Position numbers and translations under genes: made by a program. A stretch of 34,297 nt of DNA from Candidatus Hodarchaeota archaeon (GTDB lineage Archaea; Asgardarchaeota; Heimdallarchaeia; Hodarchaeales; Hodarchaeaceae), in contig JAHQWW010000028.1 in the NCBI GenBank assembly GCA_029856365.1, positions 1 to 34,297 on the forward strand, read 5' to 3'. Positions 1,439 to 28,927 of the stretch are shown piece after piece. The first letter of the stretch is position 1. Every line of letters begins with the position of its first letter. Below the pieces are notes generated by a model. It was not told the origin of the DNA. It saw nothing but the letters and a program-made list of their open reading frames with translations, and did no database searches.

Positions 1439-4400
1439 CTACTCTTCTAATCTCTCTGCGATGATTGGTTGATTCGAAGAGTCAATTGAATGGGGAAGAG
1501 AAAGTTCCACCAGGAGCTTGAGCTTAACTGCTTTCTTTAGAAATTTAATAGCCTCAATTCGCTTAAAATTTGAGCCCAACTCACCTACAATTGCCTCAGG
1601 GAAGGAATATCCAATTTTTGATACAGAATAGATCTTTTGATTTATTATATCCCACATTCTATGTTCTTTTCTAGATAGTATATTGTTATTCCTCCTCCTA
1701 ACGCCTCCATTCAACGCCAGGGGTGAACAGTAATATAGAGGAAGATGCTTGTGAATGATTCTTCTCACTTTTTCTACTGAGATATGATTGGGAGAAATGT
1801 AATTTATTAATTTATCAGCAAAATTGTCTTCAATTTCTTGCCCAATGTGTCGTATGTAAACACGGAAAGTTTTTGGAAGAACTTTATCCGAAATGATAGC
1901 AATGCTTGAATACTTGCCATTCCAGACAAGCATATTTAATCCTTTACGGCTTAGGGCTTCAAATTCGGTTTTTTGTCCTTGTATTACCTCTTCCTCAGAG
2001 CGTGCCATCATTCTCGTGGTAACATCTTTCATGAAATCTGAAATAGCTGTTGAAAGTCCCGACAGGACATCAATATCGGCCTCAAAGTCGTGGAAAGTCT
2101 GTTCATTGTAAAATTGAACCCCAAAACTGGTGCGACAAAAAATCACACGTATAGACTTCATGGCATTGTACTTTTGTACAATACTTAGTTGAATCGTTCG
2201 TGATCTACGGCGATGATGATGTATTAGGACGATTACAGAAGAGAAAGCAATTAATAACGCAAAAATGGTGATTAACACAGGATCAAGGCTAAGGATAGTT
2301 TCTCCATTATTATATTTGATTTCTATATCATTGAATTCATTATACTCATAAAATCTCTTATTTCCGTTCTTATCCACTGTCTCGATTTTATAGATTATTT
2401 TCCAATTAGTTTTATTCTGTATAAATGGAATAGTGGCGCTATAAATCTGAATCGTTTCACCATTTGTGTTTTCAATAGAATCAGAAAGCATTTCAACTAA
2501 TCGCCATTTTTGTACTTCATCATGGTTCAATGAAGATCCAAACCCTATTGGCTCAGCTTCGGTCTTATTAATAGCTTTAAAGTAGTAATATAAGATAACT
2601 TTTTCTATTCCTGAATCAAATTCTTGTATTTCTGCGCAGAAAGTGATTTTGGTGGGATCTTGCTCAAGATTCTTAATATAGGTATCTTTCACCCTCGGAG
2701 GAGTCGAATCTTCGATGGTAAAGATATAGGATTTGGTGCAATCAATTTTATAAGAAATATCTTCATATCTTTGTGTTGTAGATGTAGCTATGATCTCCAC
2801 AATGACCGTTTTATTGATGAACGAAGCATAATATTTTTCTGACAGGGGAAATTCGACTTTCCAAGGGGATTTGTAACGTTCCTTGGTCTGTTCATCAGTC
2901 CCATTAAGGATAATTTTAAAACGAACTTCGGAAATTATATTGCGAACATCGCTAGCATTGACCCAGAGGTCGTAATACCCTTCTCTTTCAGTATCAAATC
3001 CAAAGTTATTAATGGATGGTCTACTTTCAATTATAACTGATATATCTAATTTTGGCCCATTTTCAATCCCATCGAAGGGATAAACTTCAACAGTCCAAAC
3101 TTCACCTGCATGGGTCTTGCTAGCAGAAATAAACTTCCAACCATCATATTCGGATTGATAAATTCCATTAACATACCATCTTAACATTGTTAAATCGTCT
3201 TTTCGATATGAAACACCTGCTACAAAAGTATAGTTGATATTTATGTCTTGATCTTCTATAAAAAATTGTGGATGATCATCATTACCTATAAATTTTAAGT
3301 TAGTCACCGTGGGGTAGCCATTTCCTATTATAATAGCGGATGAGTTGACCCAGCTACCATGATCAAGCCTTCGGTCTCTTGGGCATACACTTACTATCCA
3401 AACGTCCCCTTTCGTTACATATCTAGACTCAACATAATGATTTTGTAATTCATCAATTAATATGCCATTTCTATACCATCGATATTGAGCATGAACGACT
3501 AAGCCATTTTCAACCTCAATATCAAATATATCTAAACCTTCACCACTATCGATATCTTTTGCTGAATAATTTACATAAAGGGGAATTCTTGGGGAGTAGA
3601 ATGTGCTATTATTGGCACCTAGAATATTTGGTGGAGCTACTAGTTCTGGGGGAGTATTACCCACAATGATGAACCCTGATTGAGGTTCTAAAACTGATTC
3701 ACCATAATCATCCCCATCGTAAGGTTTTATTATACAATAGATATAATCACCTGCAGCAATATAAGAATTAGGCAATAATATCATTGTTAACGGATTCCAA
3801 GTACCCAAATGACGTATATTCCAAGATATTTCTGTTTTGTCTTCATCTCCATCAAAGTCAACAAACTCATAAAAAATAACAACATCATCACTAGTGGTAT
3901 TTCCCCCGCTTATAGCCACATTCAGTATGTATGGCTTAGAGTTTTGAATTTCTGTTCCTGCCCACTTTTTTTCTGACCAATCAGAACCATCGAACACCCT
4001 TACTTCAAAAATCCAAACCTCTCCTTTTGAGGTATATTTAGGAAGTACTGTTGTACTGTTTTCCAAGAAAGGGACTTCGATATTATTTTTTTTCCAAACA
4101 ATATAATAAGAAACAAGTGAGTCATTGTCGGCTGTATCGCTAGCCTCGAAGGTTGCAACTAAAGTGTCGTTGGTATAAACAGATCCATTTGGAAATAAAG
4201 AAGTACAAACGATCTCAGGTTTAGTATTACCAATAGTGACGTTAATCGAAAGACTGAACCAATTACCGAAGTCTATTCCATCCTTTGGGTGAATTTTATA
4301 ATGCCAGACCTGATTTTTAGCTGTATAAGTGGTAGGAACAGTTTTAGAGTCATTTAAGGCCCCCTGTAACACCCCATCTTTGTACCAAAGAATTTCACTA

Positions 4401-7400
4401 CCATTTTCAGTCTTACTTTTAGGATCATCAGGATCGTGATATATGTATGATGCTGTAAGATTATCCCCAGTCTTCGGGCTAGTGGGTGTTATAGTAAGAC
4501 TACTAGCAGTCGGGGCTGAGTTACCAATTGTTACATTGTTCAAACACCCCACCCAATTTCCAAAATCACTCCCATCTGATGGCCTAGCTTTATAATGCCA
4601 TACCTGTCCTTTACCTGTATAATTCGCAGCAACAGTATTAGAACCACTCAAGATTTCTTGTAAAACACCATCCTTATACCATAAAATCTCTGTGCCAATT
4701 TCAGGGTCCGCGTCAGCATCATTGTAAGTATAGTTTACTATCAGGATCTGCCCTGTCATAGGGCTATTTGGGATTATAGTCAGATCATTAGCTGAGGGTG
4801 CTGTGTTCATAATAGTAGTTATTGGGGATGTTTGTAGATCCCCCAAGTTACTACCATCGCTAGGTTCGATGGTAAAGTACCAGGTCTCTCCCTTAGTTGT
4901 AGCAAATGCAGGGATGGTGGTCTGGTTCTCATAGGTTGGTTGTTCTTCTTCATTCTTATACCAACGAATATATGAACCACTTTCCAAATCTGAGTCAGCA
5001 TCAGAATAATTATATGCTATAGAAAGAATATGTTCAGTTTTTGGATAACTAGGTGTTATGATCAGATCACTGACAAATGGAGCTGTGTTGGTAATAATAA
5101 CACTGGGTGAGGTTTTTATGTTACCATAATCGGAACCATCACAGGGTTGTATAACAAAGTACCAAGTTTCTTCTTTACTAGAACTCGAGGCGAATACACT
5201 GGTTTGATTTTCAAGAGCTAGCTGTTCCAATCCATTTTTGTACCACCGAATAATTGATCCGTTATCAGGATCAGTGTCTGCATCAGTATAGAGGTAGAAT
5301 GCCGTGAGATCATCACCAGTCTTCGGGCTACTTGGAGTGATCTCTAAATCACTAATTAGGGGAGAGGTGTTATGAATGGTAACATTAACAGGACTGGAAA
5401 ACCAAATTCCGTAATCGGTGCCATCGAATGGATGGATCTTGAAATGCCATATATCACCCTTGGTAGTATTACCAACACCCACAGTGAATGCACCATTCAA
5501 AACGGTTTGTAACACTCCGTTCTTATACCAAATAATTTCTGTCTCTTTTTCGAGATCCGCGTTTACATCCGTATAGATATAGTTTGCTTTAAGTTCATGA
5601 CCAGTTTTCGGATAACTAGGAGTTATAGTAAGATCACTGACAGAAGGAGCTGTGTTATTAATCGTCGCATTTATAGGAATCCTTACCCACTCACCAAAGT
5701 CAGTGCTATCTGATGGATGAACTTTGAAAAACCAAACTTGCCCCTTGATAGTATAATTGGCGGTGACAGTTATAGATCCATTCAAAGCTGTTTGTAGTAC
5801 TCCGTTCTTATACCAAATGATTTCTGTCTCACCCTCTGGATCTGCATCTACATCTACATAAGCATAACTTGCAACAAGGTCTTCACCAGTTTGAGGGTTA
5901 CAAGGAGTTATGGTCAAATCACTAACAGAAGGTGCTGTGTTCGCTATAGAAACACTAGGGGATATCTTTAGAATCCCATAATCACTACCATCACTAGGTT
6001 CGATGGTAAAGTACCATATCTCCCCCTTAGTTGTAACAAATGTGGGGATGGTGGTCTGGTTTTCATAAGTTGGTTGTACTTCTTCATTCTTGTACCAACG
6101 AATATATGAACCACTTTCCAGGTCAGAGTCAGTATCAAAGTAATTATAATTTACTATTAGATCATCTCCAGTTTTCGGATTAATGGGTGTTATGGCTAGA
6201 TTACTGACAGATGGTACCGTGTTCACAACCGTTATATTTATCGAAACGCTTACCCAATTACCAAAGTCAGTTCCATCTGAAGGTTTAACCTTAAAACTCC
6301 AAACTTGCCCCTTGGCTATATATGTGGAAAAAACAATAGTCGAATCGTTTAAAAATCCTTGCAGCTTGCTATCCTTAAACCAAATAATTTTCGTTCCACT
6401 CTCGGGATCCATGTCAATATCAATGTAAGTATATTCTGCTTCGAGATCGTTCCCAGTCCGAGGTTCAATAGGTGTGATTATGAGATTTCCAGCAGAAGGT
6501 GCAGTATTATTAATTGTCATATTCATCGAAACACTTACCCATTGGCCAAAATCATCTCCATCCTTTGGGTGAACTTTATAATGCCAGACCTGTCCCTTGC
6601 CAGTATAACTGGTAAATACAACTGTGGAACCATTCAATGCCTCCTGTAGCACATCGTCTTTGTACCAAATAATCTCAGTTCCTATCTCGAGATCTGAATC
6701 AGCATCAAAATAGTCATAATTGGCTATCAGATCATCTCCCGTCCTCGGATTAGTAGGTGTTATGGTCAAATTACTGACAAAGGGTGCTGTGTTCGCTATT
6801 GTTATAATGGAGGACCATCCCTGACTGCCATAATCGCTCCCATCGCTAGGTTTAACGGAAAATTGCCAGTTTTCTCCTTTGTTTGTGATTGATGCGGGGA
6901 TTGTTGTCTGGTTCTCATAAGCTAGTTGTTCCAATCCATTTTTAAACCAACAAATAATTGATTCAATTTCAGGATCCATGTCAGCATCGATGAAAGTATA
7001 ATCTGCATTAAGATCATGCCCAGTTTTAGGTCCACTAGGCGTTATGGCAATATTACTGGCAGATGGCGCCGTATTAACAATGGTTATGTTTATAGGACTC
7101 TCAACCCACTCACCATAGTCTGTTCCATCTGATGGTCTGACTTTACAATGCCACTCCTGTTCTTTAGTAGTATAACCAGATAAAACGAATGTAGATCCAT
7201 TCAAAGCTCTTTGCAGCTCACCATCCTTGTACCAAAGGATCTCTGTTCCATTCTCGGAATCTAAATCAGGATCAATGTAGCTGTAACTTATAAAAAGTTT
7301 ATCCCCAGTTTTTGGCTCATTAGGCGAGATAATCAAACCACCAACAGATGGAGCAGTATTCTGAATCGTAACATTTTCAGGAACACTTGCCCAGTTACCA

Positions 7401-13400: not shown

Positions 13401-16400
13401 TTCTCTCCTTTACTCGTGGCTGTTGAAGGGAGGATAATCTGATTTTCATAAGAAACCTGTTCCAAATCATTCTTGTACCAACGAATAATTGACCCAATTT
13501 CTGGATCTGAATCAAGATCACTATAAATATAACTCGCTGAAATATCATGGGTAGTTCCTGGATTATTAGGTATTATGGCTACTTCATTGGCAATTGGTGC
13601 TGTGTTGTCAATAGTTACATTGTTTTGGCTTCCTAACCAATCACCAAACTCTGTGCCATCAAAAGGGCGAATTTTGAAATGCCATACTTGTCCTTTAGTA
13701 GTATAACTAGCAAAAATTCTTGTTGACCCGTTCATAATACCTTGTAGAACCTCATTTTCGTACCAAAGGATTTCTATATTTATTTCGGGATCTCCATCTA
13801 CATCAGCATAATTATAACTTATCATAAGGTCATCTTCTGTCATAGGACTCCCAGGTATTATGAACAGATCACTTGTTGAGGGTGCTGTATTCACTATGGC
13901 AATAATAGAGGATGATTTCATATTACCATAGTTGGTGCCATCACTAGGTTGGATAGTAAAGTACCAAATTTCCCCCTTATTCGTATTTGCTGCGAAGATG
14001 GTAGTTTGGTTTTCGTAAACAATCTGTTCTTCCCCATTTTTATACCAGCGAATGTATGATCCAGTTTCAGGATCTGAATCAAGATCATTGAAAGTATAAC
14101 TAGCTGAAAGATCCTGCTCTGTTTTAGGGTTACCAGGTAATACAGACAATTCATTGACAAATGGGGGTGTATTTCCAATGGTAACATTAATTGTACTACC
14201 TAGCCACTCACCAAAATCAACTCCGTCTGATGGCCGAACCTTGCAATGCCAGATTTGTCCCTTGGCTGTAAGAATTGCAATTACAGTCATGGACCCGTTC
14301 AATGCTCCTTGTAATACCCCATCCTTGAACCAAATGATATTAGACCCACTTTCAACATCATTGGTGTCAAGATCAATCCAATAATATCTTACGCTTAATT
14401 CATTGGCAGTTTTGGGGTCTTCGGGGTTGATAACAAGACCCTCAATTGAAGGAACAGAGTTCCCAATCGTTAAATTGGTCGATACACCTGTGATATTGCC
14501 AAAGTCTGTCCCATCGCGAGGTCTTACCTTGGCATGCCAGATATCACCTTTTACTGTAGCTGCGGATGGGAGGGTCTGCAACCCATCATAATCATTCATA
14601 TGGACTCCATTACAGTACCAATAATATTTTGATCCAGATTCACTGTCTCCATCCTCATCAAAGAATGTCCAAATTACATTCAAATTATTACTTGTAGTGG
14701 GATTTTCAGGTGTTATGTACAAGAGCTTTGCTTCGGGTGGAGTATTTGGTGGTACTTCTATACTAACAGAGGGAGAAATCCCCCATTTGCTTAGATTTAT
14801 TCCATCGCTCACCTGAATAGTGAAATACCAAATATCTCCCGATATGGAACTACCATTATCTACTATTAATGAATCATTAAGTATTTCTTGAAGAATTCCA
14901 TTTTTGTACCAACAGATCCTTCGTGAGGTATTTTTTTGCACATCATTATCATAATCTGAATAAGAGTAAGAAACATGAAGATCAGAATCATTGGAAACTG
15001 GTGAACTTTCAAGAATTTTAACATCTGAGACTATAGGTGGAGTGTTATGGATTGTGACATTTATTAAACAGCCTATCCAGGAACTGAAATTATTGCCATC
15101 TGATGATCGAACTTTACAATGCCACACCTGCTCTCTATCAGTATAGCTTGTGGGAACATTCATTGAACCATTCAAAGTTCCTTGCAACATTCCATCTCTG
15201 TACCATAAGATTTCATAGCTAGATTCGAGATCTGAATCAACATCCGTGTATATATAGCTTACTTTAAGGTCTTGATTAGCTTGAGGTTTATTGGGGACTA
15301 TTAATAAACTATCAACAAGAGGAGCTGTGTTTTGGATCGTAATATTGTTTAAAACGCTAACCCACTCGCCATAGTCAGTACCATCTGACAGTCTGATCTT
15401 ACAATACCAGACCTCTCCTTTGGTAGTATAACTAGAAGAAACAATCATAGATCCGTTCAATGCTCCTTGCAATACCCCATCCTTGTACCACAAGACCTCG
15501 GTACTAATTTCAGGATCATTGTCAGGATCACTATAGGTATAATTAGTTGTAAGGTCATCCTCGGTCTTTGCACCGCTAGGCATCATGGTTAAATCACTGA
15601 TAGATGGCGCAGTGTTTGTTATAATGATAATTGGAGATATTTTTAGACTTCCAAAGTCTGTTCCATCGCTTGGTTGGATCGTAAAGTACCAGGTTTCCCC
15701 TTTGTTAGTAGCTGAGTTAGGAATGATGGTTTGATTTATATAGCTTGGTAGAAGATAGCCATTCTTGTACCAACGAATATAAGATCCATTTTCTTGGTCT
15801 CCATCAGGATCAACAAAGATATAGTTTGCTGTAAGATTATCTCCAGTTTTCGGATTATTTGGAGTTATGATAACACCACTTGCTGTAGGAGCAGTATTAC
15901 CAACAGTTATATTTATAGTAACACTTACCCATTCACCAAAGCATATCCCATCTGATGGACAAACCATACAATGCCATTCCTGCCCTTTAGCTGTAAATGT
16001 AGCTGGAACGAGAATAGAATCGTTTAAATCCTCTTGCAGCACGTCATCTTTGAACCAACGAATCATGGTTCTATTCTCAATATCTAAATCAGGATCTATA
16101 AAAGTGTAAATCACTATTAAATTGTCTTTTGTCGTAACATTCTCTGGTATTATAGCTAGCTCACTTATAGATGGTGCAGTATTACCAATGGTAACATTAT
16201 ATAGGACTTCCATCCAAATCCCGAAGTCAGAACCGTCTGATGGGCGAATTTTGTAATGCCAAACTTGGCCTTTAGTAGTATAACTAGCAGGGACAATCTC
16301 GGAATTATTAAGATCCTTTTGCAGGATACTATTTTGGTACCATAGGATTTCGGTACCACTCTCTGGATCATTATCAGGATCCATATAAGTATAATTTACT

Positions 16401-19400
16401 ATAAGATCATGACTAGATAATGGTTCAGTGGGCATTATTATTGGACTACTTGAAGTTGGTACCGTGTTTGTTATAATTACTGATGAAGATGTCTTGACAG
16501 TTCCATAATCAGCACCATCACAAGGATGAATGGTCAAGTACCAAATCTCCCCCTTATTTGTCATTTCTGCGGGGACAGTAGTTTTATTCTCATAACTGAG
16601 CTCTTCAGCACCATTCTTATACCAGCGAATTATTGATCCGTTTTCAGGATCACAATCAGGATCAGTATAAGTATACGTCATTATAAGATCGTCTCCAGTT
16701 TTTGGAGTATAAGGTGTTATGAACAGATCACTAATTGAGGGTTCTATGTTAATAACTGTTATATTACTTGAAACACTTATCCAGTCACTAAAGTCCATAC
16801 CATCATATAATTTAACTTTGAAATGCCAGACCTGTCCTTTAGCTGTGTGATTGGAACTAACATAGAGCGAATCGTTCAAATTGTCTTGTAGGACCCCATC
16901 TTTAAACCAAATGATATTTGTTTCGCATTCGGGGTCTGCATCATTGTCCTTGTAATAATAGGTTGCAAATAGAACATCTTCCGTGATGGGATTCATAGGA
17001 ATAATAGCTAAATCGCTAGCAGAAGGAGGTGTATTATTTATCGTAATATTATTTTGAACAATGGCCCACTGCCCAAAATCAGTACCATCTGATGGTCGTA
17101 GTTTATAATACCAGTCCTGTCCTTTTGCAGTGTAACTAGCCAGAACAGTTCTTGAACCGTTCAACATTCCTTGCAGTACTCCATCCTTGTACCATAGGAT
17201 CTCGGTTCCACTTTCCAGGTCTGAGTCAAGATCAGCATAAATATAACTTACTGTAAGGTTATCCCCTGTCTTAGGTTCATTAGGAATTATTATAAGATTG
17301 CTAACTGAAGGTTCAGTGTTCATAATTGTAACCGTTGAAGAAATCTTGGGAATCCCATAGTCGAAACTATCCCTAGGTTGAATTACAAAGTACCAGTTCT
17401 CCCCTCTGTTTGTTGCTATAGAAGGAATGGTAGTCTGGTTTTCATAAGTAGTTTGCTCCTCCCCATTTTTATACCACTGAATAAATGACCCACTTTCTAA
17501 ATCAGAGTCAGGATCTGTATAGCTATATGATGCAGAAAGCTCGTCACCAGATGTTGGCTCATTAGGGACTATAGTAAGATCAGCAACAAAGGGTGCTGTG
17601 TTTACAATCGTGATATTAATCGGAAGGTCAATCCACTCACCAAAATCCGTTCCATCTGATAGCTTAAGTTTGTAATGCCATTCTTGCCCTTTTAAGGTGT
17701 GACTCGCAGGAACAGTTATTGAACCATTCAGGATTCCTTGTAGTATACCATTCCTATACCAAAGGATTTCCATTCCACTTTCGGGGTCTGAGTCTGGATC
17801 TATGTAAGTATAACTCGCTATCAGGTCATCTACCACTTTTGGATTGATAGGAGTTATGATTAGGTCAATTGCGAAAGGCACAGTATTACCAATAGTAACA
17901 TTGGTTGAGATACTTATCCACTCACCAAAATCTGTCCCATCTGATGGGCGAACCTTGCAATGCCACACTTGTTCTTTCGCAGTATAAGTAACAGGAACAG
18001 TGTTTGAATAATTCAAACCTCCTTGTAACACCCCATTTTTGTACCAAAGGATTTCTGTCCCACTTTCGGGATCCGAATCAACATCAGCGTAGCTGTATAT
18101 TACCATTAATTCATTACCAGTCTTCGGCTCATTAGGCGTTATACTCAAATCACTGGCCGATGGTACCGTGTTCGCTATATTAATCATTGAAGAAGTTTTA
18201 AGATTACCATAGTTAATTCCATCACTGGGTAAAACTGTAAAGTACCAGTTCTCTCCCCTATTTGTAGCTGAGGGGGGGACAATAAGCTGATTTTCATACG
18301 CAGGTTGTACTATCCCATTTTTGTACCACAAAAGAATAGTCCCACTTTCTTGATCTCCATCAGAATCAATGAAGGTATAACTTGCCATTAGATCTTGATT
18401 TGTTTTCGGATTATTGGGAGCTAAATCAAGATTACTTGCTAAAGGGGCAGTATTAGCTATTGTCACAATAACTGATGTCACCCAATTGGAGTAATTAGTA
18501 CCATCGTGAACACGCATCGCAAAGAACCATTCTTCTCCATTAGTGGTCTCTTCAGAAGGGACAGATATTTGATCGTTGATAGAAACTACTAAATATCCAT
18601 TTTTATACCATCTTATCTGTCGATTGATTGTGTTTTCGTCATCATCGTCATAATCATAATAAGAGTAGATAGAAGACAAGACAGAATCAGTGGTTGGTAT
18701 ATCAGGAGCAATATAATAGTTTGAAAGTTCTGGGATTGAATTATACACAGTGATGTTTAAAGACCAGATTAGTTCACCAAAATTTTTACCATCCTTTGGT
18801 TGTACTGAAGCACACCAAACATCACCTTTGATCAGCGCATAAGCTGGAATCTGTTTCATATCATTATAAACTGGTTCGAAAACTGAGTTTTTGTACCAAC
18901 GAATTTCAGTACCTTCTTCACTATCGCCATCTTGGTCATAAAAATCATAATTCAAGGATAACGTATTGCAACTATGAAGAGGATCAGGGGAGAGAATCAA
19001 GTTAGAGGCAATAGGTGCTATGTTCACTTCACCTTGATGTTTACTTGAAGTGTAAGAGTTACCCGCGGTGTCATTAACAATGATTTCAAATAAAATAGTG
19101 CCTGCATTCATTTGAAGAGTGTCATTAATATACCCCGAAATTGTAGGTTTCATTGTAGCTGTCAAATCATTACGTGCTATTCCAGCGCACTGTGTTACAT
19201 TGACAAGTACGGAGTCTATTTCTCCCCAGGAATCGGTCACGTTGGCATTAAAGGTGCCAAAAGAACCGATATATCGATAATATTCCCAATCTAGCACATT
19301 AGGAAAAACTGTATCGTAATTGAAAGTTATATTTTTTACAATTGACCCCTCAGTCAAGTAATTACCTGAAGAATCAGTTGTATTGCAAATCTGATATTTA

Positions 19401-22057
19401 ATGAAGTCATTAAAATTAATTGATGAAGGTTGATAAACCCAAAAACCCGTTTCATTCAATATCATATCATTCCATGTCTCGTTCAACTTAAGCATAACGG
19501 TCTCAACATTGGACATGCTATCAGAGATATTTGCCCAGAATTGAGGGAATCCATTTCCAGTATCATCCACACCAAAATCATGGATAATAGGAGGCAAATG
19601 ATCTGGAGGGGGTAAACTGATGATTTGCCAACATTCTTCATGTTGATCATAGTTATCTGTTGTTCCATGATATTGCGTACTCGTCCATTGAGACCCAGAA
19701 ATCAGTCTCGGGAGGTTTTTTTGGCGAGGAAAAGATAATCCAGTACCCCTCGTAGATGAACTTCGAACGATTATAGTTCTATCAGGATCAACCTGATTAG
19801 GTATATCATTAGTTAAAGAATTTGATTCAGAATTTGGAGGATCCCAATTATAATTCCCTCGCTGGACATAAATTCCCTCTTCTGGAGGATGTTCTATTAC
19901 ATACCAACGAATACGGTTTGCATATGAAGAGCTGTCATATCGTCCAAAAGTGACTTCATTTGTATCAGTTATTTGCCCAAATATAGAAGTTTGCTGGAGT
20001 CCGTTGTCTGTACAGTCATACGTGAAATAAACCCAGCTAGAGCTCATATTCACCACAGGATCGTTGGGACTCCCAGAAGCAGCAATTAAATCAGTTATCT
20101 GTGCTGGAGAACTAATTACTACTTCTCCAGTATAAACAGCGTATTTTGATGGCCATTCTATAACTTGAAATCGAATTATTGCATCAGTGCTAGTAGCTGC
20201 CCCCGCTCTTTCAGCCATTACTGTTGTGGTATTAAAAAGTTCCACAGTTGCAAAGCCATCTTTGGTATCTTGTTGTGTAGCAGAAGGCTCATTTACTCTA
20301 CTATGTCCTATTACAAGTGATCTCGAAGGATCAACCATAGAGACTGACGCTGTATTACTCGCTTGACCTGCCCCGATACTAATTGATCCTCGCTGAACAT
20401 AAATTTCAGGACTCTCTACAATCCACCATGAAACATAAACATTTGAATCTTCTACAACTCTATCAAATGTTAGATGAGTTGGTGAACTAATATAACCACT
20501 GACCTGATGTTCGCGGGGATGGCTAGCAGAGCTGCTTCCTGCATAGTACATTATCAGAAAGGCCTGACTTGGGTCAACAGTTCCTCCAATATGTTGAATA
20601 GATTCAATCCCACTTAAAAACTGAAAAGAACCATGGTAAGTTCTGAAGCCAGTAGTACTACCCCCAAAATATTCTTCCTCTTTCTTAATAGAATAAAAAC
20701 TCTTAGGATTATTTTGGTTATTGTACTCTGTTATGATCCAGCTGAGGGGGCGTGAAATACTAGAAATTCGAACCTCGTCAATTATCCCATCAAACCATGC
20801 TTGACCATTTCCCAATTGCCCAGTGTCAACATTTCCACCTCCGATATTCCAATCACTATTCCAAGCAAGATTTGCGTTATTACCATTACTCCAATCTGTT
20901 GAATCTGTATCGTCTAATCCATTGATGTAAATCTTATTGTTTGCCAAGTTATTTGTATCTAATACACATGTAAAGTAATACCAAACGCTAGCTGACCACG
21001 TTCTAGTTTCTGTCCACTTATACATTACATCGCCATTTTCAATTTTAAATACAAGACCACCATCTTCTCCTTGGCTATAATCTATCCCAGTGAGGATGAT
21101 TGCCATATCTTGATCATTTGACGCAAATTTTTCTAACAGAAGTAATGACGTTGAAGAAGAGCTTGAATGACCACTATTAAGCTTAAACCATCCCGAAATA
21201 GTCACATCTGTACTTGGATTAAGAGTGGAATTTGGTGGGATATTTATTTTATCGTTTGCTCCATCAAAATTTTGCCCATCACAAATCTTACCTGTAAAAT
21301 CATCATTCCCGTCTTGAATGCCATGAATAAGGTTTATGGTTGAGTCATAATGAGCTGCTCCTGAATTTTCATCCATCACAGCTTCATTGAAGTGCAAAAC
21401 TGTAAGATAATTAGAATCCCAGACACCAGTAGGATTTTCCTGAATTCCAATATTATGATTTCCATAATACATCGAAATAGTGGTATTAATCGTACTCGAT
21501 AAGTTGGGAATTCTGACCCAAGCCACTAAATGAGCATGGGTGGAGTTATATGTTTGATTGAAGTATTCCAATTCATGATCGAGCTTTACACCTGTTATAT
21601 CAGCAAATAGAATATCGTCACCATCTGCTTGTACATCTAAATGCAGATCGCTATCGTATAGATCGATAAGTACTGGGAAATCTTGTAAGTCTGCAGCAAC
21701 TTTCATTGAATTTATCGTTATATTTTTCCGATATCGGAACGAAATATCTCCCCAATTACCTCCTAATTTAACTGAAGATTTTACAATAAAATCCTGCTGA
21801 TCAAGTAATTCATCATTAGGATCATTATTTGACTCTGGAGGGAATGATTGATAACTATTCCAGTCACTCTCCACAGTTCCGTTCATTTTATCAAAACAAT
21901 CAAGCATAGTAACATTACTTATCAAACGTGGGACTACTTGAATTTTTTCTATCATTTCAGGAATTTTATCATTCTGAATTTGGATGGAGGGTATAATGAC
22001 GTTGATAAAAAAAACCACACATATTGAGTATGATATAAACCGTGGAGGCACCCTCAA
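1439..22057 (-). CDS. Giant (6872 aa) single-pass surface adhesin/receptor-like protein: DUF2341 + LamG + VQRG repeats + ~56 Ig/cadherin-like repeats + TM + cytoplasmic longin/roadblock-like and wHTH-like tail
   Basis: Uninterrupted 20.6-kb ORF with a TTG start (GTG at 22051 is an alternative) and a hydrophobic N-terminus (ISYSICVVFFINVII). Domain motifs are listed in the sub-features. One TM helix, PVLITIFALLIAFSSVIVLI, is followed by HHHRRRSR. Confidence 0.95.
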   Translation of the reverse strand: MRVPPRFISYSICVVFFINVIIPSIQIQNDKIPEMIEKIQVVPRLISNVTMLDCFDKMNGTVESDWNSYQSFPPESNNDPNDELLDQQDFIVKSSVKLGGNWGDISFRYRKNITINSMKVAADLQDFPVLIDLYDSDLHLDVQADGDDILFADITGVKLDHELEYFNQTYNSTHAHLVAWVRIPNLSSTINTTISMYYGNHNIGIQENPTGVWDSNYLTVLHFNEAVMDENSGAAHYDSTINLIHGIQDGNDDFTGKICDGQNFDGANDKINIPPNSTLNPSTDVTISGWFKLNSGHSSSSSTSLLLLEKFASNDQDMAIILTGIDYSQGEDGGLVFKIENGDVMYKWTETRTWSASVWYYFTCVLDTNNLANNKIYINGLDDTDSTDWSNGNNANLAWNSDWNIGGGNVDTGQLGNGQAWFDGIIDEVRISSISRPLSWIITEYNNQNNPKSFYSIKKEEEYFGGSTTGFRTYHGSFQFLSGIESIQHIGGTVDPSQAFLIMYYAGSSSASHPREHQVSGYISSPTHLTFDRVVEDSNVYVSWWIVESPEIYVQRGSISIGAGQASNTASVSMVDPSRSLVIGHSRVNEPSATQQDTKDGFATVELFNTTTVMAERAGAATSTDAIIRFQVIEWPSKYAVYTGEVVISSPAQITDLIAASGSPNDPVVNMSSSWVYFTYDCTDNGLQQTSIFGQITDTNEVTFGRYDSSSYANRIRWYVIEHPPEEGIYVQRGNYNWDPPNSESNSLTNDIPNQVDPDRTIIVRSSSTRGTGLSFPRQKNLPRLISGSQWTSTQYHGTTDNYDQHEECWQIISLPPPDHLPPIIHDFGVDDTGNGFPQFWANISDSMSNVETVMLKLNETWNDMILNETGFWVYQPSSINFNDFIKYQICNTTDSSGNYLTEGSIVKNITFNYDTVFPNVLDWEYYRYIGSFGTFNANVTDSWGEIDSVLVNVTQCAGIARNDLTATMKPTISGYINDTLQMNAGTILFEIIVNDTAGNSYTSSKHQGEVNIAPIASNLILSPDPLHSCNTLSLNYDFYDQDGDSEEGTEIRWYKNSVFEPVYNDMKQIPAYALIKGDVWCASVQPKDGKNFGELIWSLNITVYNSIPELSNYYIAPDIPTTDSVLSSIYSYYDYDDDDENTINRQIRWYKNGYLVVSINDQISVPSEETTNGEEWFFAMRVHDGTNYSNWVTSVIVTIANTAPLASNLDLAPNNPKTNQDLMASYTFIDSDGDQESGTILLWYKNGIVQPAYENQLIVPPSATNRGENWYFTVLPSDGINYGNLKTSSMINIANTVPSASDLSITPNEPKTGNELMVIYSYADVDSDPESGTEILWYKNGVLQGGLNYSNTVPVTYTAKEQVWHCKVRPSDGTDFGEWISISTNVTIGNTVPFAIDLIITPINPKVVDDLIASYTYIDPDSDPESGMEILWYRNGILQGILNGSITVPASHTLKGQEWHYKLKLSDGTDFGEWIDLPINITIVNTAPFVADLTIVPNEPTSGDELSASYSYTDPDSDLESGSFIQWYKNGEEQTTYENQTTIPSIATNRGENWYFVIQPRDSFDYGIPKISSTVTIMNTEPSVSNLIIIPNEPKTGDNLTVSYIYADLDSDLESGTEILWYKDGVLQGMLNGSRTVLASYTAKGQDWYYKLRPSDGTDFGQWAIVQNNITINNTPPSASDLAIIPMNPITEDVLFATYYYKDNDADPECETNIIWFKDGVLQDNLNDSLYVSSNHTAKGQVWHFKVKLYDGMDFSDWISVSSNITVINIEPSISDLFITPYTPKTGDDLIMTYTYTDPDCDPENGSIIRWYKNGAEELSYENKTTVPAEMTNKGEIWYLTIHPCDGADYGTVKTSSSVIITNTVPTSSSPIIMPTEPLSSHDLIVNYTYMDPDNDPESGTEILWYQNSILQKDLNNSEIVPASYTTKGQVWHYKIRPSDGSDFGIWMEVLYNVTIGNTAPSISELAIIPENVTTKDNLIVIYTFIDPDLDIENRTMIRWFKDDVLQEDLNDSILVPATFTAKGQEWHCMVCPSDGICFGEWVSVTINITVGNTAPTASGVIITPNNPKTGDNLTANYIFVDPDGDQENGSYIRWYKNGYLLPSYINQTIIPNSATNKGETWYFTIQPSDGTDFGSLKISPIIIITNTAPSISDLTMMPSGAKTEDDLTTNYTYSDPDNDPEISTEVLWYKDGVLQGALNGSMIVSSSYTTKGEVWYCKIRLSDGTDYGEWVSVLNNITIQNTAPLVDSLLIVPNKPQANQDLKVSYIYTDVDSDLESSYEILWYRDGMLQGTLNGSMNVPTSYTDREQVWHCKVRSSDGNNFSSWIGCLINVTIHNTPPIVSDVKILESSPVSNDSDLHVSYSYSDYDNDVQKNTSRRICWYKNGILQEILNDSLIVDNGSSISGDIWYFTIQVSDGINLSKWGISPSVSIEVPPNTPPEAKLLYITPENPTTSNNLNVIWTFFDEDGDSESGSKYYWYCNGVHMNDYDGLQTLPSAATVKGDIWHAKVRPRDGTDFGNITGVSTNLTIGNSVPSIEGLVINPEDPKTANELSVRYYWIDLDTNDVESGSNIIWFKDGVLQGALNGSMTVIAILTAKGQIWHCKVRPSDGVDFGEWLGSTINVTIGNTPPFVNELSVLPGNPKTEQDLSASYTFNDLDSDPETGSYIRWYKNGEEQIVYENQTTIFAANTNKGEIWYFTIQPSDGTNYGNMKSSSIIAIVNTAPSTSDLFIIPGSPMTEDDLMISYNYADVDGDPEINIEILWYENEVLQGIMNGSTRIFASYTTKGQVWHFKIRPFDGTEFGDWLGSQNNVTIDNTAPIANEVAIIPNNPGTTHDISASYIYSDLDSDPEIGSIIRWYKNDLEQVSYENQIILPSTATSKGENWYFTIQPSDGINYGNLKTSPTIVINNTVPSVDYLSITPENPVTGEALVASYSYTDVDGDLESDSYIRWFKNGEEQPSYENQTTLSAVTTSKGETWYFTILPSDGTSYGNLKTSLMITIANTAPSISYLTILPIDPGTNHSLSVSYSFTDVDNDNETGTEILWYRDGVLQGALNGSKTVSLSYTAKGEVWHCMVRPSDGIDFGEWVVTPLNVTINNTAPSTSNLAIMPSEPRIGDNLIAWYNFQDLDADPESETIIRWYKNGIEQTAYENQTTVPASATRKGENWLFSIQPSDGTDYGGIKTSVIVIVVNTVPFVNNLAITPNTPKTSHELVCGYNYADMDLDPESGTFIRWYKNSIEQTAYENQTSVLPSATNKGENWYFSILPCDGSDYGNVKTSPIVTIVNTKPSIINLAITPSSPKSINDLTVSYSYTDLDTDIETGTEIVWYRDGVLQGALNGSKTVSASYTAKGEVWHCMVRPSDGINFGEWVVTPLYVTIGNTAPGVGNLVIIPGEPKIGDDLIAWYNFQDPDIDPENKTIIRWYKNGVEQTAYENQTIIPASITTKGENWYFTIQPSDDIEYGSMVFSPIVTICNTAPSVSDLNITPHKPKTRDDLKGSYNYLDVDSDLESGSIIRWFKNDDEQIAYENQTTVPASATSKGENWYFTILPCDGDDYGYLKMSPIITITNTKPLANGLVLSPNEPLTDQNLVASYVYTDADSDPESGTEIFWYQNGVLQGALNGSTTVAASYTTKGQEWHLKIRPSDGINFGDLISVSVNVTIANTAPSISNISIEPNNPKTVNDLTSIYIYTDPDSDPESESIIRWYKNGIEQFDYENETIIPYTATSKGENWYFTIQPSDGIEYGTLVLSSIITIRNTAPSVSDLIIIPNTPKTGDVLTASYNYNDLDSDAESGSIIRWYKDGVEQFGLENLITIPAAATNKEENWYFSIQPYDGTDYGSLKSSSIINIVNTAPSIKNLVIIPSNPLSIDEISLNYIYSDEDSDSESGTEILWYRDGVLVGALQDFTIVPSSYIAKGQVWHCKVRPSDGIDYGEWVDSSINVTIANTAPFTSELAITPSEPKTENDLYANYIYIDPDNDMESESIFRWYKNGIEQPGYENLSILPAAATKRGENWYFIILPSDGTDYGNMQTSPIVTIVNTGPSVSSLAIVPSEPKTGDALTASYSYTDPDSDLESGSIIRWYKNGIEQPGYENQLNLPAAVTSKGETWYFTVQPSDGTDYGNLQPSPMVAIANTSPSAGNLDVSPNNPQTTNDLFAFYTYSDPDSDPESESRICWYKNAIEQSMYENQTTLPAAATKKGENWYFTILPNDGSDYGTLQTSQIVTIMNTGPSASDLNIIPNDPGTNDELAANYIYVDPDDDPESGTNILWYKDGVLQDTLNDSATVLNIYTAKGQVWHCKVRPSDGTDFGGWVSSTSNITINNTAPATTDLTITPVAPKTGHDLLASYTYADPDSDPENGSHIQWYKNGIEQSVYENQTAIPAAATSKGEDWYFTTQASDGTDYGDLMTSPVITIRNTAPSVSNLIITPSNPMTGDDLTAAYSYSDMDTDPESGSRIWWYKNGIEQPVYENQTFVHSSTTSKGENWCFIIEPSDGSEFGSQKASSIITIVNTAPSANDICISPTSPQTGHNLIIGYTYTDPDNDLEIGTEIVWYKDNILQEALSGLTVVTASYTTKGQEWHCKVRPSDGTEFGSWASSQVNITITNTPPSVSDLTITPSYPTSSDDLVASYSYLDVDLDEESGTEIIWYKDSVIQGGLNGSTTVQDNLTGKGQIWHFKVRPKDGFVFGEWIGSPTNVTISNTPPTVSNVKILEESPVNETLDLHATYLYSDYDGDSQVNTSREIRWYRDNVLQSSLNDILTIAAGNTTVGQIWYFTIQVSDGVDLSSLEISPSVGIQVPPNNPPEARFLNLIPSNPIQANSLFINWTFHDIDGDEELGSQYRWYRNGDHVSEYDNLQILPSTATVKGDNWHVKVRPRDGKDFGNWASVPENVTIQNTAPSVGGLIISPNEPKTGDKLFISYSYIDPDLDSENGTEILWYKDGELQRALNGSTFVLSGYTTKEQEWHCKVRPSDGTDYGEWVESPINITIVNTAPSASNIAITPSGPKTGHDLNADYTFIDADMDPEIESIICWFKNGLEQLAYENQTTIPASITNKGENWQFSVKPSDGSDYGSQGWSSIITIANTAPFVSNLTITPTNPRTGDDLIANYDYFDADSDLEIGTEIIWYKDDVLQEALNGSTVVFTSYTGKGQVWHYKVHPKDGDDFGQWVSVSMNMTINNTAPSAGNLIITPIEPRTGNDLEAEYTYIDIDMDPESGTKIIWFKDSKLQGFLNDSTIVFSTYIAKGQVWSFKVKPSDGTDFGNWVSVSINITVVNTVPSVSNLAITPINPKTGDDLIVNYNYFDTDSDLESGSYIRWYKNEEVQPTYENQTTIPTFVTTKGEIWYFTIEPSDGSDYGILKISPSVSIANTAPSVSDLTITPCNPQTGEDLVASYAYVDVDADPEGETEIIWYKNGVLQTALNGSITVTANYTIKGQVWFFKVHPSDSTDFGEWVRIPINATINNTAPSVSDLTITPSYPKTGHELKANYIYTDVNADLEKETEIIWYKNGVLQTVLNGAFTVGVGNTTKGDIWHFKIHPFDGTDYGIWFSSPVNVTIHNTSPLISDLEITPSSPKTGDDLTAFYLYTDADTDPDNGSIIRWYKNGLEQLALENQTSVFASSSSKEETWYFVIQPCDGSDYGNIKTSPSVIITNTAPFVSDLIITPSYPKTEHILSIAYNYSDADSDLESGSYIRWYKNEEEQPTYENQTTIPAFATTKGETWYFTIEPSDGSNLGDLQTSPITTIMNTAPSANDLTIIPNSPMTGQILIVNYTYNDADADPEIGTEILWYKDGVLQEILSGSNTVAANYTGKGQVWHYKARPSDGSDFGNWVGCLNNVTIGNSAPTASSLTITPTSPKTGDNLTASYIYHDPDDPKSKTENGSEILWYKDGVLQGALNDSKTVPTTYTAKNQVWHYKIHPKDGIDFGNWFSLSINVTIGNTKPEIVCTSLFPNGSVYTNDTLVATFEASDTADNDSLVSYYIVWKKNNIEVPFLENSTTVLPKYTSKGEVWIFEVRVFDGSDWSEKKWAGTEIQNSKPYILNVAISGGNTTSDDVVIFYEFVDFDGDEDKTEISWNIRHLGTWNPLTMILLPNSYIAAGDYIYCIIKPYDGDDYGESVLEPQSGFIIVGNTPPELVAPPNILGANNSTFYSPRIPLYVNYSAKDIDSGEGLDIFDIEVENGLVVHAQYRWYRNGILIDELQNHYVESRYVTKGDVWIVSVCPRDRRLDHGSWVNSSAIIIGNGYPTVTNLKFIGNDDHPQFFIEDQDININYTFVAGVSYRKDDLTMLRWYVNGIYQSEYDGWKFISASKTHAGEVWTVEVYPFDGIENGPKLDISVIIESRPSINNFGFDTEREGYYDLWVNASDVRNIISEVRFKIILNGTDEQTKERYKSPWKVEFPLSEKYYASFINKTVIVEIIATSTTQRYEDISYKIDCTKSYIFTIEDSTPPRVKDTYIKNLEQDPTKITFCAEIQEFDSGIEKVILYYYFKAINKTEAEPIGFGSSLNHDEVQKWRLVEMLSDSIENTNGETIQIYSATIPFIQNKTNWKIIYKIETVDKNGNKRFYEYNEFNDIEIKYNNGETILSLDPVLITIFALLIAFSSVIVLIHHHRRRSRTIQLSIVQKYNAMKSIRVIFCRTSFGVQFYNEQTFHDFEADIDVLSGLSTAISDFMKDVTTRMMARSEEEVIQGQKTEFEALSRKGLNMLVWNGKYSSIAIISDKVLPKTFRVYIRHIGQEIEDNFADKLINYISPNHISVEKVRRIIHKHLPLYYCSPLALNGGVRRRNNNILSRKEHRMWDIINQKIYSVSKIGYSFPEAIVGELGSNFKRIEAIKFLKKAVKLKLLVELSLPHSIDSSNQPIIAERLEE
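1442..2281 (-). other. TM helix (~2222-2281) and ~260-aa cytoplasmic tail: longin/roadblock-like domain (~1740-2155) followed by a wHTH-like C-terminus
   Basis: IRVIFCRTSFGVQFY (beta hairpin), DIDVLSGLSTAISDFMKDV (helix), EFEALS/NMLVWNG/SSIAIISD (three strands) and two further helices give the bb-a-bbb-aa order of the longin fold. The terminal LSRKEHRMWDII...EAIKFLKKAVKLKLLVEL resembles a winged helix. Confidence 0.65.
3026..19024 (-). repeat. Tandem array of ~56 Ig/cadherin-like repeats (~94-100 aa; mostly 282-285 nt each)
   Basis: Manual count gives 56 units over aa ~1012-6344. Consensus NTAP.vs.L.ItP..PkT.ddL.asY.Y.DpDsDpEsG..I.WYK(N/D)G..........T.KG(E/Q).W.f.i.PSDG.d(Y/F)G. Units 53-56 are more divergent. 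Confidence 0.92.
11897..12937. repeat. Recent intragenic direct repeat pair: 11897-12088 vs 12746-12937 (offset 849 nt = 3 units)
   Basis: Manual alignment shows ~11 mismatches in 192 nt (~94% identity). Confidence 0.85.
19612..20650 (-). repeat. Four ~85-90-aa beta-rich VQRG...VD.S...F.R...W.(V/I)IE repeats (H-type-lectin/tail-fibre-like, inferred)
   Basis: Units seen: YHGSF..VDPSQ..LTFDR..VSWWIVE; VQRGS..VDPSR..VMAER..IRFQVIE; VYTGE..VNMSS..VTFGR..IRWYVIE; VQRGN..VDPDR..CWQIIS. Confidence 0.7.
20680..21754 (-). other. DUF2341 + LamG/concanavalin A-like domain pair within the giant protein
   Basis: DUF2341 signature: W..FRYRKNITI...DFPVLI...DGDDILF...LDHELE...WVRIP...MYYGN. LamG-like signature: FDGANDKI, TISGWFK, WYYFTCV, KIYING, FDGIIDEVRIS...WIITEYNNQ. 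Confidence 0.85.
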
Positions 22058-22483: not shown

Positions 22484-22897
22484 TCAAATTGATTGATACT
22501 GACCACTTAAAATTTGCTCGATTCTTTGTTGTTTTCCTCTCGCCAAGATATTAAAGATTCGTCCATTCCCAGGTTCAGTTGAAAATTCATGGATTACCAA
22601 TTGATATTGTTGGAAAATTGAAAAGATAATCCAATCGATATCTGACATCTTTTTCGTCCAGATATCACTCTCACTTTTAAAAACATCAATGGTGAGAGCC
22701 AATTCTGCATGGGTTATTTCTGCTTTTGGAATTCCTAATTTCGTTGTGATCTTTGTAAGCAACTCTTCTAAGTTCGGTATTTTTGTAAGCGTAAAATCAT
22801 CTGGTATGGCAATAATGTAACTTGAAGAGGATTGTTCTCGAATCAAGTCATCCTGCTTTTTCATCAGAGTTCTCTCCGTATTATACTTCAAGTCCAT
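22484..22897 (-). CDS. Hypothetical protein (~137 aa, alpha/beta)
   Basis: ORF with GGAG(TG) RBS before ATG at 22897 (the track start is GTG at 22903). Protein-like composition; no family recognised. Confidence 0.7.
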   Translation of the reverse strand: MDLKYNTERTLMKKQDDLIREQSSSSYIIAIPDDFTLTKIPNLEELLTKITTKLGIPKAEITHAELALTIDVFKSESDIWTKKMSDIDWIIFSIFQQYQLVIHEFSTEPGNGRIFNILARGKQQRIEQILSGQYQSI

Positions 22898-23273
22898 TAT
22901 CACTCCTATTTAAAGACTAGTAAATTCTTTTCAAACTGGATTACTAAATCTGAAAATGGAGATTTCGTTCAACAATCAAATAAGAAATAAATTTCCTTGC
23001 TTTGATCTTACTAAAAACTGGAGGAAGATTTTACTTCAATTATTCCTTAGTAAAAATCCTATTGTTTTATGTAAAGCGGAAGTTGACAACAGCTTGAATT
23101 TAAAGAACTGAAAATCATCCTTACTTCATTTAAAGAAACAAAGAGAGAATATTTTTGCACTAACAAGAGATTTGAAGATATTTCATAATAGGAAAAACTG
23201 GATAATACTATAGCTTGAATGGTTAATTTTAAGAGAGGTTTGATTCCACAAGAACAACCGACATACTAATGAT

Positions 23274-28898: not shown

Positions 28899-28927
28899 GT
28901 TAAAACCTTTATATTCATTCTTTAGAA

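Follow-up and report, generated by a model that had tools for sequence, protein, structure and literature searches.

What kind of surface protein spans 6872 residues in an Asgard archaeon, and does the folded domain at its inner end give it a role beyond that of a fibre? The gene in question is a single open reading frame (ORF) on the minus strand of contig JAHQWW010000028.1 from Candidatus Hodarchaeota archaeon (assembly GCA_029856365.1), of which the 34,297 nucleotides analysed here (positions 1 to 34,297) are referred to as the window. A first-pass annotation, made from the letters alone, had described its product as a candidate giant cadherin-like adhesion receptor wired to a cytoplasmic longin/roadblock-like domain. 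From the analyses reported below, the giant FN3 fibre is of a kind already known in Asgard archaea, and what appears to be new, against the literature searched, is the predicted longin tail fused behind its transmembrane (TM) helix.

A giant type-I membrane protein with a predicted longin tail

On translation the ORF runs for 6872 codons from 22057 to 1439, opening with a TTG codon that aligns with residue 1 of an annotated ortholog (P0003) and containing no internal stops. Given that the frame stays open over 20.6 kb in DNA with a GC content of 34-42%, a chance origin is ruled out. A hydropathy scan detected two hydrophobic segments only, at residues 7-27 and 6585-6615, the second of which is directly followed by the sequence HHHRRRSR. 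The ectodomain is acidic (isoelectric point (pI) 4.2-4.4) and carries 120 NxS/T sequons within its repeats, whereas the final 260 residues have a basic pI of 9.67 and lack sequons. This combination of an acidic, sequon-rich ectodomain with a basic, sequon-free tail corresponds to a type-I pattern; the giant is thus predicted to be a type-I membrane protein with a glycosylated ectodomain and a cytoplasmic tail.

The tail, taken as the last 260 residues, was folded by AlphaFold2 (AF2) with an alignment of 50 family sequences, yielding a model with a predicted local distance difference test (pLDDT) of 82.7 and a predicted template modelling score (pTM) of 0.77. Its elements comprise strands at tail residues 24-31 and 36-41, a long helix at 50-81, strands at 87-92, 95-101 and 105-111, and helices at 118-139 and 149-165, followed by a small C-terminal unit of helices and a strand within residues 184-239 and by 17 disordered residues at the end. 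Foldseek matches to this model were confined to the longin/roadblock superfamily (zeta-COP, sigma-adaptins, LAMTORs, Sec22b, MglB, synbindin and LC7). With VIA-align, the closest superposition was to Sec22b (Z 13.1, root-mean-square deviation (rmsd) 2.7 Å, 126/128 residues), with further matches to synbindin (Z 12.4), TRAPP Trs23 (11.2), sedlin (10.7), VAMP7 (10.6) and Ykt6 (10.5), as well as to MglB (8.6-8.9) and a Lokiarchaeota Roadblock-Longin protein (8yqg; 8.8). Longin alignments span tail residues 22-165 at Z 10-13, whereas roadblock and MglB alignments end near residue 140, which favours the longin type with its two C-terminal helices. Residues 22-165 of the tail are accordingly modelled as a predicted longin domain.

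Sequence-based searches were less informative for this region of the protein. A Pfam scan of residues 6340-6872 matched no families, an NCBIfam scan of the tail returned no matches, and a tail profile searched against PDB sequences found nothing relevant. For the C-terminal subdomain there was likewise no sequence match in PDB or Pfam; by secondary structure only, this unit may be winged-helix-like, a reading that is unconfirmed. A co-fold of two tail copies scored 0.01 against a mark of 0.42, which has no bearing on whether the tail dimerises.

The tail defines an unnamed family found across the phylum

A phmmer search with the last 260 residues against 1.84 billion representative proteins identified 57 clusters, 50 of which were checked. 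In these proteins, which range from 265 to 3305 amino acids (aa), the match is placed at or close to the C-terminus, and in most a hydrophobic helix and a basic stretch precede it, a few being fragments or having no clear helix. The tail is an unnamed family, with no Pfam or NCBIfam model. A profile search detected it in 255 of a sample of 300 genomes from the phylum, and in 85 of the 90 that are of high quality, usually in several copies per genome. All named relatives come from metagenome-assembled genomes (MAGs) of Asgard archaea, including Hodarchaeota/Hodarchaeales, Heimdallarchaeota, Kariarchaeaceae and Promethearchaeota. A search for homologues of similar length with the tail alignment gave no matches, probably owing to a word-index limit.

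Closer examination covered 66 tail-family members at 63 loci, drawn from this and 52 other genomes of several GTDB families. In 55 of the 66 the tail comes straight after a TM helix and a basic stretch, and one further member (L069) has a weaker helix at this position that was missed by the threshold. Within the source genome itself, five membrane proteins bear the tail (on contigs C5, C7, C120, C23 and C45). The tails of the C120 and C7 proteins are 39-40% identical to that of the giant, and their ectodomains share nothing detectable with it; between paralogs with unrelated ectodomains, tail identity is generally 20-40%. Together, these results bear out three elements of the first-pass annotation. 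The type-I topology is consistent with the placement of the two hydrophobic segments (N-terminal residues 7-27 and one C-terminal TM helix, by the hydropathy scan), with positive charge on the tail side and with all sequons on the opposite side; the folded intracellular tail of the longin/roadblock superfamily, for which structure prediction had been recommended, is reproduced by the AF2 model and its fold matches; and the suggested recurrence of the tail behind varied ectodomains is seen within the family.

A separate arrangement was observed in one GTDB family, where six genomes encode the tail within an apparently soluble FG-GAP (integrin-alpha-like) protein of ~720 aa (L033:6477-8657; L034:3-6347). 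Directly downstream of this gene, on the same strand, lies a gene for a protein of ~2115 aa with TPR, SNAP-like and MIT-like matches.

The ectodomain: an FN3/Ig-like array behind a lectin-like head

Using a hidden Markov model (HMM) built from the units themselves, we counted exactly 56 tandem modules, 54 of full length and two degenerate. A two-module unit, folded by AF2 with the other 52 overlapping doublets as the alignment, gave a model with pLDDT 96.7. Foldseek ranked the Fn3-like modules of CbhA first for this doublet (3pdd, E 2.3e-6), followed by NCAM and titin, while VIA-align superposed it on titin A77-A78 with Z 10.4 over 177 residues. On these models, the modules are predicted FN3/Ig-like beta-sandwich tandems that superpose on solved FN3 tandems. 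At the sequence level, Pfam fn3 did not match the array modules, the repeats used as a profile retrieved nothing from PDB sequences, and the NCBIfam model ZirU_fam matched the modules weakly (66 bits, below its cut-off of 100).

No cadherin family was hit when residues 1100-2000 and 5700-6560 were scanned against Pfam with E values up to 0.1 allowed. Furthermore, the top 50 Foldseek and VIA-align rows for the doublet consist of FN3/Ig tandems (CbhA, titin, NCAM, LAR and PECAM), and cadherins were not among the matches listed. The first-pass label "cadherin-like" is not supported by these comparisons, and the resemblance of the giant to cadherins appears to be an analogy of design, not of family. 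Its estimate of about 56 acidic Ig-like repeats, on the other hand, agrees with the HMM count, the ectodomain pI and the FN3/Ig-like doublet model, and the lectin-like domains that it placed at the tip correspond to DUF2341 and Laminin_G_3 matches above their Pfam gathering scores.

Invariant or nearly so among the modules are the linker residues N1 and P4 (invariant), together with D30, D32, D34, E36, D78 and G79. If the modules adopt FN3 topology, D30-E36 and D78 would map to the loops BC and FG, which would sit beside the linker at the N-terminal pole. These conserved acidic loops reasonably suggest a putative Ca2+ site at each module junction, where the motifs DxDxDxE, SDGxDxG and NTxP come together; such a site would stiffen the rod. 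Clustering of the modules also revealed two main subtypes that alternate with a period of three, with mean identity peaking at offsets of 3, 6 and 9, and a distinct two-module cassette that occurs at modules 15-16 and again at 40-41, a spacing of exactly 25 modules. The cassette pair and the period-three order suggest a large internal duplication and titin-like super-repeats. Modules of the same type are carried by 17 other ORFs in the source genome, in 1-17 copies each.

At the opposite end from the tail, the head possesses a DUF2341 domain followed by Laminin_G_3, both above the gathering score, as in archaeal proteins with a DUF2341 plus LamG head; the Laminin_G_3 match is also present in the ortholog P0003. 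A weak Big_13 match was detected by Pfam near the end of the remaining head region (aa 470-1011). In MAGs of Thorarchaeota and Hodarchaeales we identified 17 other giants (3780-7591 aa) whose head is of a related DUF2341/LamG type; most of these proteins have a TM helix near the C-terminus followed by a tail of ~190-260 aa. None of the tails of these 17 matched the longin-tail HMM, and comparison of the longin tail by hhalign with two alignments built from other giant DUF2341/LamG tails indicated no relation (probability <1%). The occurrence of related heads with dissimilar tails points to independent shuffling of head, rod and tail.

Additional features were seen among giant DUF2341/LamG proteins of 3780-6536 aa, which comprise P0067, P0069-P0071, P0073 and P0074 from Hodarchaeales or metagenomes, and P0065, P0066 and P0075-P0080, mostly from Thorarchaeota. 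Some of them carry 16-23 copies of the same module and end in a TM helix and tail. Their tails constitute two other conserved families dissimilar to the longin tail, one of which starts with a GVVVSFFDQRHGPIPI hairpin and could, judging from its sequence, represent another longin/uDENN type.

Integrity of the array

Since an ORF of this size in a MAG might be an assembly artefact, with an array that was artificially concatenated or expanded, we examined the divergence of its modules. Module identity averages 45% at the amino acid level and reaches 77% at most, no 50-mer is repeated in the DNA of the ORF, and repeat identity reported by Tandem Repeats Finder (TRF) is at most 74-79%. With modules this diverged, collapse or chimera is unlikely, and so is misassembly of the array. 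Further evidence comes from relatives. The ortholog P0003 (MFX0181445.1), from a Hodarchaeota MAG, is 72% identical to the giant over the 1011 aa of the head and 63% identical in the tail, yet at 2149 aa it possesses only six modules. Either array length is strongly variable among relatives or the assembly of P0003 has collapsed. The small number of modules in P0003 is what an artefactual array in the giant would also predict, and two proteins with tails 80-82% identical to that of the giant (P0002 and P0059) are cut off within their arrays by contig ends, indicating that such arrays are hard to assemble. Set against this are the differences among all 56 modules, the uninterrupted frame, the orderly period-three pattern of subtypes and the occurrence in other Asgard MAGs of proteins of 3780-7591 aa with the same head domains. 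A protein with 54 FN3 domains in 5416 aa is moreover reported from the closed genome of a cultured Asgard archaeon. We regard an artefactual origin of the ORF as very improbable.

Comparison with known systems

The closest described counterpart of the fibre is that same protein, LOKIASV2_19760 of Nerearchaeum marumarumayae, which the available part of a 2025 preprint presents as membrane-bound, with FN3 domains of five subtypes, and as titin-like, with a structural match to CbhA and a reach of ~250 nm (bioRxiv 10.1101/2025.07.22.663070). As far as that account goes, it shares with the giant a signal sequence, tens of FN3-like domains in subtypes and a membrane-spanning segment, with 54 compared with 56 modules, the same family of structural matches (CbhA, titin) and the same estimated length. 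The likeness is one of description, and the portion of the account available mentions no cytoplasmic domain. The hosts also differ, being Promethearchaeaceae for LOKIASV2_19760 and Hodarchaeales-type for the giant.

Among bacterial and animal surface proteins, LapA, SiiE, Bap and Fat/Dachsous resemble the giant as long surface rods of tandem beta-sandwich modules, and Fat/Dachsous additionally in having a single TM helix and a folded cytoplasmic tail. To our knowledge, LapA, SiiE and Bap have no C-terminal TM helix with a cytoplasmic domain. In place of the secretion or sorting signal at the C-terminus of giant adhesins of type I secretion systems, the giant ends in a TM helix and a folded, basic tail of 260 aa.

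With regard to the tail, the fold matches to eukaryotic longins (Sec22b, Ykt6 and VAMP7; the TRAPP subunits synbindin/Trs23, Bet5 and sedlin) cover the whole domain, at Z 10-13, rmsd 2.7-3.8 Å and 120-136 aligned residues, with a sequence identity of only 5-13%. Longin SNAREs begin with the longin domain and have their TM helix at the extreme C-terminus. The giant reverses this order, with the domain placed directly after the TM helix, and it has a huge ectodomain and no SNARE motif. Ragulator, in which roadblock dimers are anchored by LAMTOR1, and the signal recognition particle (SRP) receptor, in which SRX of SR-alpha sits on SR-beta, are membrane-held longin/roadblock platforms that dock small GTPases, and LAMTOR and SRX chains are among the structural matches of the tail. 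These platforms are held at the membrane through a lipidated or separate subunit, in contrast to the predicted fusion of the giant's tail to a surface protein.

Longin/roadblock dimers serve as small-GTPase platforms in MglB, Ragulator, TRAPP and Mon1-Ccz1, and dozens of longin/roadblock domains, GTPase fusions among them, are encoded in Asgard genomes (Tran et al. 2024, PMC10933270). MglB and the Asgard roadblock and longin proteins (PDB 8yqg) belong to the same fold superfamily as the tail. The described Asgard forms are soluble or GTPase-fused, and the word "transmembrane" does not occur in the text of PMC10933270; the tail differs from them in its type-I surface fusion and its extra C-terminal helical domain. 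In the literature searched (longin, membrane and Asgard) we found no surface protein described as carrying a longin domain behind its TM helix. The first-pass view of the locus as a candidate for an undescribed system is thus retained for the fusion of longin tail and fibre, and not for its parts, since giant FN3 arrays appear in the 2025 preprint and the expansion of longins in Asgard archaea is well known.

A proposed docking role for the tail, and rival explanations

We consider it probable that the giant is an adhesin-like fibre whose longin tail acts as a membrane-tethered docking platform, with a small GTPase or its regulators as the likeliest partners. Under this proposal, the DUF2341 and LamG lectin-like head would be carried at the end of a rod of 56 FN3/Ig-like modules, approximately 200-250 nm in length assuming ~4 nm per module. 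The fibre would be anchored by its single C-terminal TM helix, which would continue into a short basic helix and so hold the longin and small helical domains at the inner face of the membrane. The tail is a module shared by single-pass surface proteins across the Asgard archaea and portable among them, and as a docking platform it would couple these proteins to cytoplasmic partners; that the partners would be small GTPases or their regulators is proposed by analogy with well-studied longin/roadblock systems. Information might flow either from the outside in, as sensing, or from the inside out, as positioning or sorting of the fibre. The adhesion role of the giant is itself presumptive.

Several observations weigh against this proposal. 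In the AF2 model, confidence is no more than moderate for the long first helix of the longin domain (pLDDT 60-68). None of the 50 tails matched Pfam Longin, Sybindin, Sedlin or Robl_LC7 significantly, the best match to a curated model being that of one of the 50 to Robl_LC7 (E 0.021), so that the longin assignment rests on predicted structure. A minority of tail-family members are soluble, such as the FG-GAP protein of one GTDB family, and longin domains also serve roles that do not involve GTPases, in SNARE regulation and as coat adaptors. Gene neighbourhoods were clustered within ~6.5 kb at the 63 tail-family loci. The most common neighbour cluster was a Ras-family GTPase (19 of 63 loci), followed by ABC ATPases and methyltransferases, with ~10.5 of the 63 expected from the density of small GTPase-like ORFs in the source genome (66 in 4.24 Mb). 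These GTPase genes are rarely adjacent, lie mostly on the opposite strand and stem mostly from a few orthologous locus groups. Set against the background density, and after grouping of orthologous loci, the GTPase neighbours show no clear enrichment and were not taken as evidence. No neighbour family is common to the whole tail family across these loci, and the contig of the ortholog P0003 is not syntenic with the window. This agrees with the literature, according to which genes for Asgard GTPases do not as a rule share operons with those for longin or roadblock proteins (PMC10933270). As the neighbourhoods lend it no support, the GTPase link of the tail is one that we infer from the fold.

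The same neighbourhood data, with no conserved GTPase or other partner gene beside family members, would suit a passive cell-coat or adhesion fibre, in which the longin tail serves as a structural anchor or as a sorting or assembly module with neither signalling nor GTPase. The roughly nine-fold difference in array length between orthologs (56 compared with 6 modules) is what might be expected of a spacer or coat under diversifying pressure, and the dissimilar tails of other giant DUF2341/LamG proteins of Asgard archaea indicate that such an ectodomain is independent of the longin tail. For the cultured relative, roughly one in four proteins of the proteome is predicted to be exposed at the surface, and adhesin-like proteins with FN3 domains are numerous (bioRxiv 10.1101/2025.07.22.663070). 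A passive fibre is nevertheless the less probable explanation, though one that deserves serious weight, in that a TM helix would suffice as an anchor while a two-domain module of 240 aa has been kept throughout the phylum, at 20-40% identity between paralogs with unrelated ectodomains, and in that the longin fold almost always mediates protein-protein docking. A second alternative, along the lines of the first-pass annotation, posits an outside-in contact receptor, whose tail would shift its oligomeric state upon binding at the tip and thereby switch a GTPase or recruit membrane-remodelling or actin machinery. The layout is indeed receptor-like in combining a lectin head with a single TM helix and a folded tail; the genome encodes 66 small GTPase-like ORFs; a Ras-family GTPase gene lies 2.6 kb upstream of the C120 paralog; and at 6 loci a gelsolin gene follows one paralog subfamily on the same strand, at a distance of ~1.1 kb. 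However, a signal would be hard to pass along a flexible rod of 200 nm and one TM helix except by clustering, the GTPase neighbours are neither clearly above background nor operon-like, and the gelsolin linkage is found mostly in one genus and concerns a different paralog. We therefore judge such a receptor to be quite improbable, and favour the docking platform, which allows for either direction of information flow.

Extending the docking platform to the family as a whole, the tail-bearing proteins could be phylum-wide single-pass receptors whose longin (and winged-helix-like) tails recruit small GTPases or their regulators where the cell touches a surface or a partner. By analogy, this would amount to an archaeal forerunner of the receptor-to-GTPase coupling that drives membrane and cytoskeleton remodelling in eukaryotes, with the giant fibre as its longest-reaching member; as a general account of the family we hold it to be unlikely, if attractive.

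Whichever direction information takes, the tail bears on a broader problem. Asgard cells that lack internal compartments hold dozens of GTPases and of longin/roadblock domains, whose role and attachment to membranes are an open question, and a conserved longin module behind the TM helices of many surface proteins provides a concrete handle on it. It offers a physical connection, open to testing, from the surface of Asgard cells to a protein fold of eukaryotic type, and the tail, being small and confidently folded in prediction, could be expressed alone in searches for partners. Asgard archaea live in tight syntrophic contact with partner cells, so that a link from a surface fibre to eukaryote-type machinery would bear on how the host of the mitochondrial ancestor held or sensed its partner. 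Should the tail prove to be an anchor or assembly module only, its description would still supply a useful annotation for a large unnamed family.

Features of the locus and neighbouring genes

Table 1. Features of the giant gene, with coordinates in the window and the evidence for each
Feature	Residues	Coordinates	Strand	Evidence and remarks
Giant gene, whole	6872 aa + stop codon	1439..22057	-	ORF list, translation
N-terminal hydrophobic segment (signal peptide or signal anchor)	aa 7-27	21977..22039	-	Kyte-Doolittle; aligns with N-terminus of P0003
DUF2341 domain	aa 145-223	21389..21625	-	Pfam PF10102, E 5.7e-7, 30.3 bits (cut-off 23.4)
Laminin_G_3 / concanavalin-A-like lectin domain	aa about 265-435	20753..21265	-	PF13385, E 1.2e-12, 48.7 bits (cut-off 27.6)
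Remaining head	aa 470-1011	19025..20650	-	No family; 72% identical to P0003
56 tandem FN3/Ig-like modules (predicted fold), 94-95 aa each	aa 1012-6344	3026..19024	-	HMM segmentation, AF2 doublet, fold matches, subtype clustering
Membrane-proximal stalk	aa 6345-6591	2285..3025	-	No family; homologous to stalk of paralog C23
Single TM helix (predicted), then HHHRRRSR	aa about 6592-6612	2222..2284	-	Hydropathy scan
Basic juxtamembrane helix (predicted)	tail residues 1-21	2159..2221	-	AF2 helix 2-22, pLDDT about 93
Longin-fold domain (predicted)	tail residues 22-165	1727..2158	-	beta-beta-alpha-beta-beta-beta-alpha-alpha; AF2, Foldseek, VIA-align
C-terminal small helical domain (predicted)	tail residues 166-246	1484..1726	-	Three helices and a short strand; AF2, pLDDT 84-97

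Beyond the giant itself, a number of gene arrangements were recorded around tail-family members. At L022 (13795-14958) and five similar loci, a gelsolin-repeat protein (Pfam Gelsolin, E 7e-23) is encoded near a tail paralog subfamily of ~2060 aa, in most of the six ~1.1 kb downstream on the same strand; as the linkage is mostly within one genus, it may be inherited synteny only. On contig C120 of the source genome (G000; locus L015, 3-4751 and 9957-13089), the gene after the paralog, on its strand, encodes a surface protein of >1583 aa with subtilase S8 and CARDB domains. The Ras-family GTPase encoded ~2.6 kb upstream of this paralog, also on the same strand, is 231 aa in length, with an MscL gene and a gene for a proline-rich protein in between.

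Within the window, a 139-aa ORF (22484-22903, minus strand) lies directly upstream of the giant on the same strand. It has no Pfam match and, as judged by gene sizes and Pfam calls only, no counterpart upstream of the ortholog (L078). Further upstream, a 316-aa protein (28928-29878, minus strand) matches Ca2+-dependent phosphoinositide phospholipase C (PF16670, E 1.4e-9), an enzyme unusual in an archaeon, and its gene overlaps the end of the next gene by 13 bases. In a fusion protein of 1090 aa (25668-28940, minus strand), an FAD-binding oxidase domain is joined to a 4Fe-4S dicluster and two CCG cysteine-rich domains; the protein resembles a D-lactate/glycolate oxidase with a heterodisulfide-reductase-type module.

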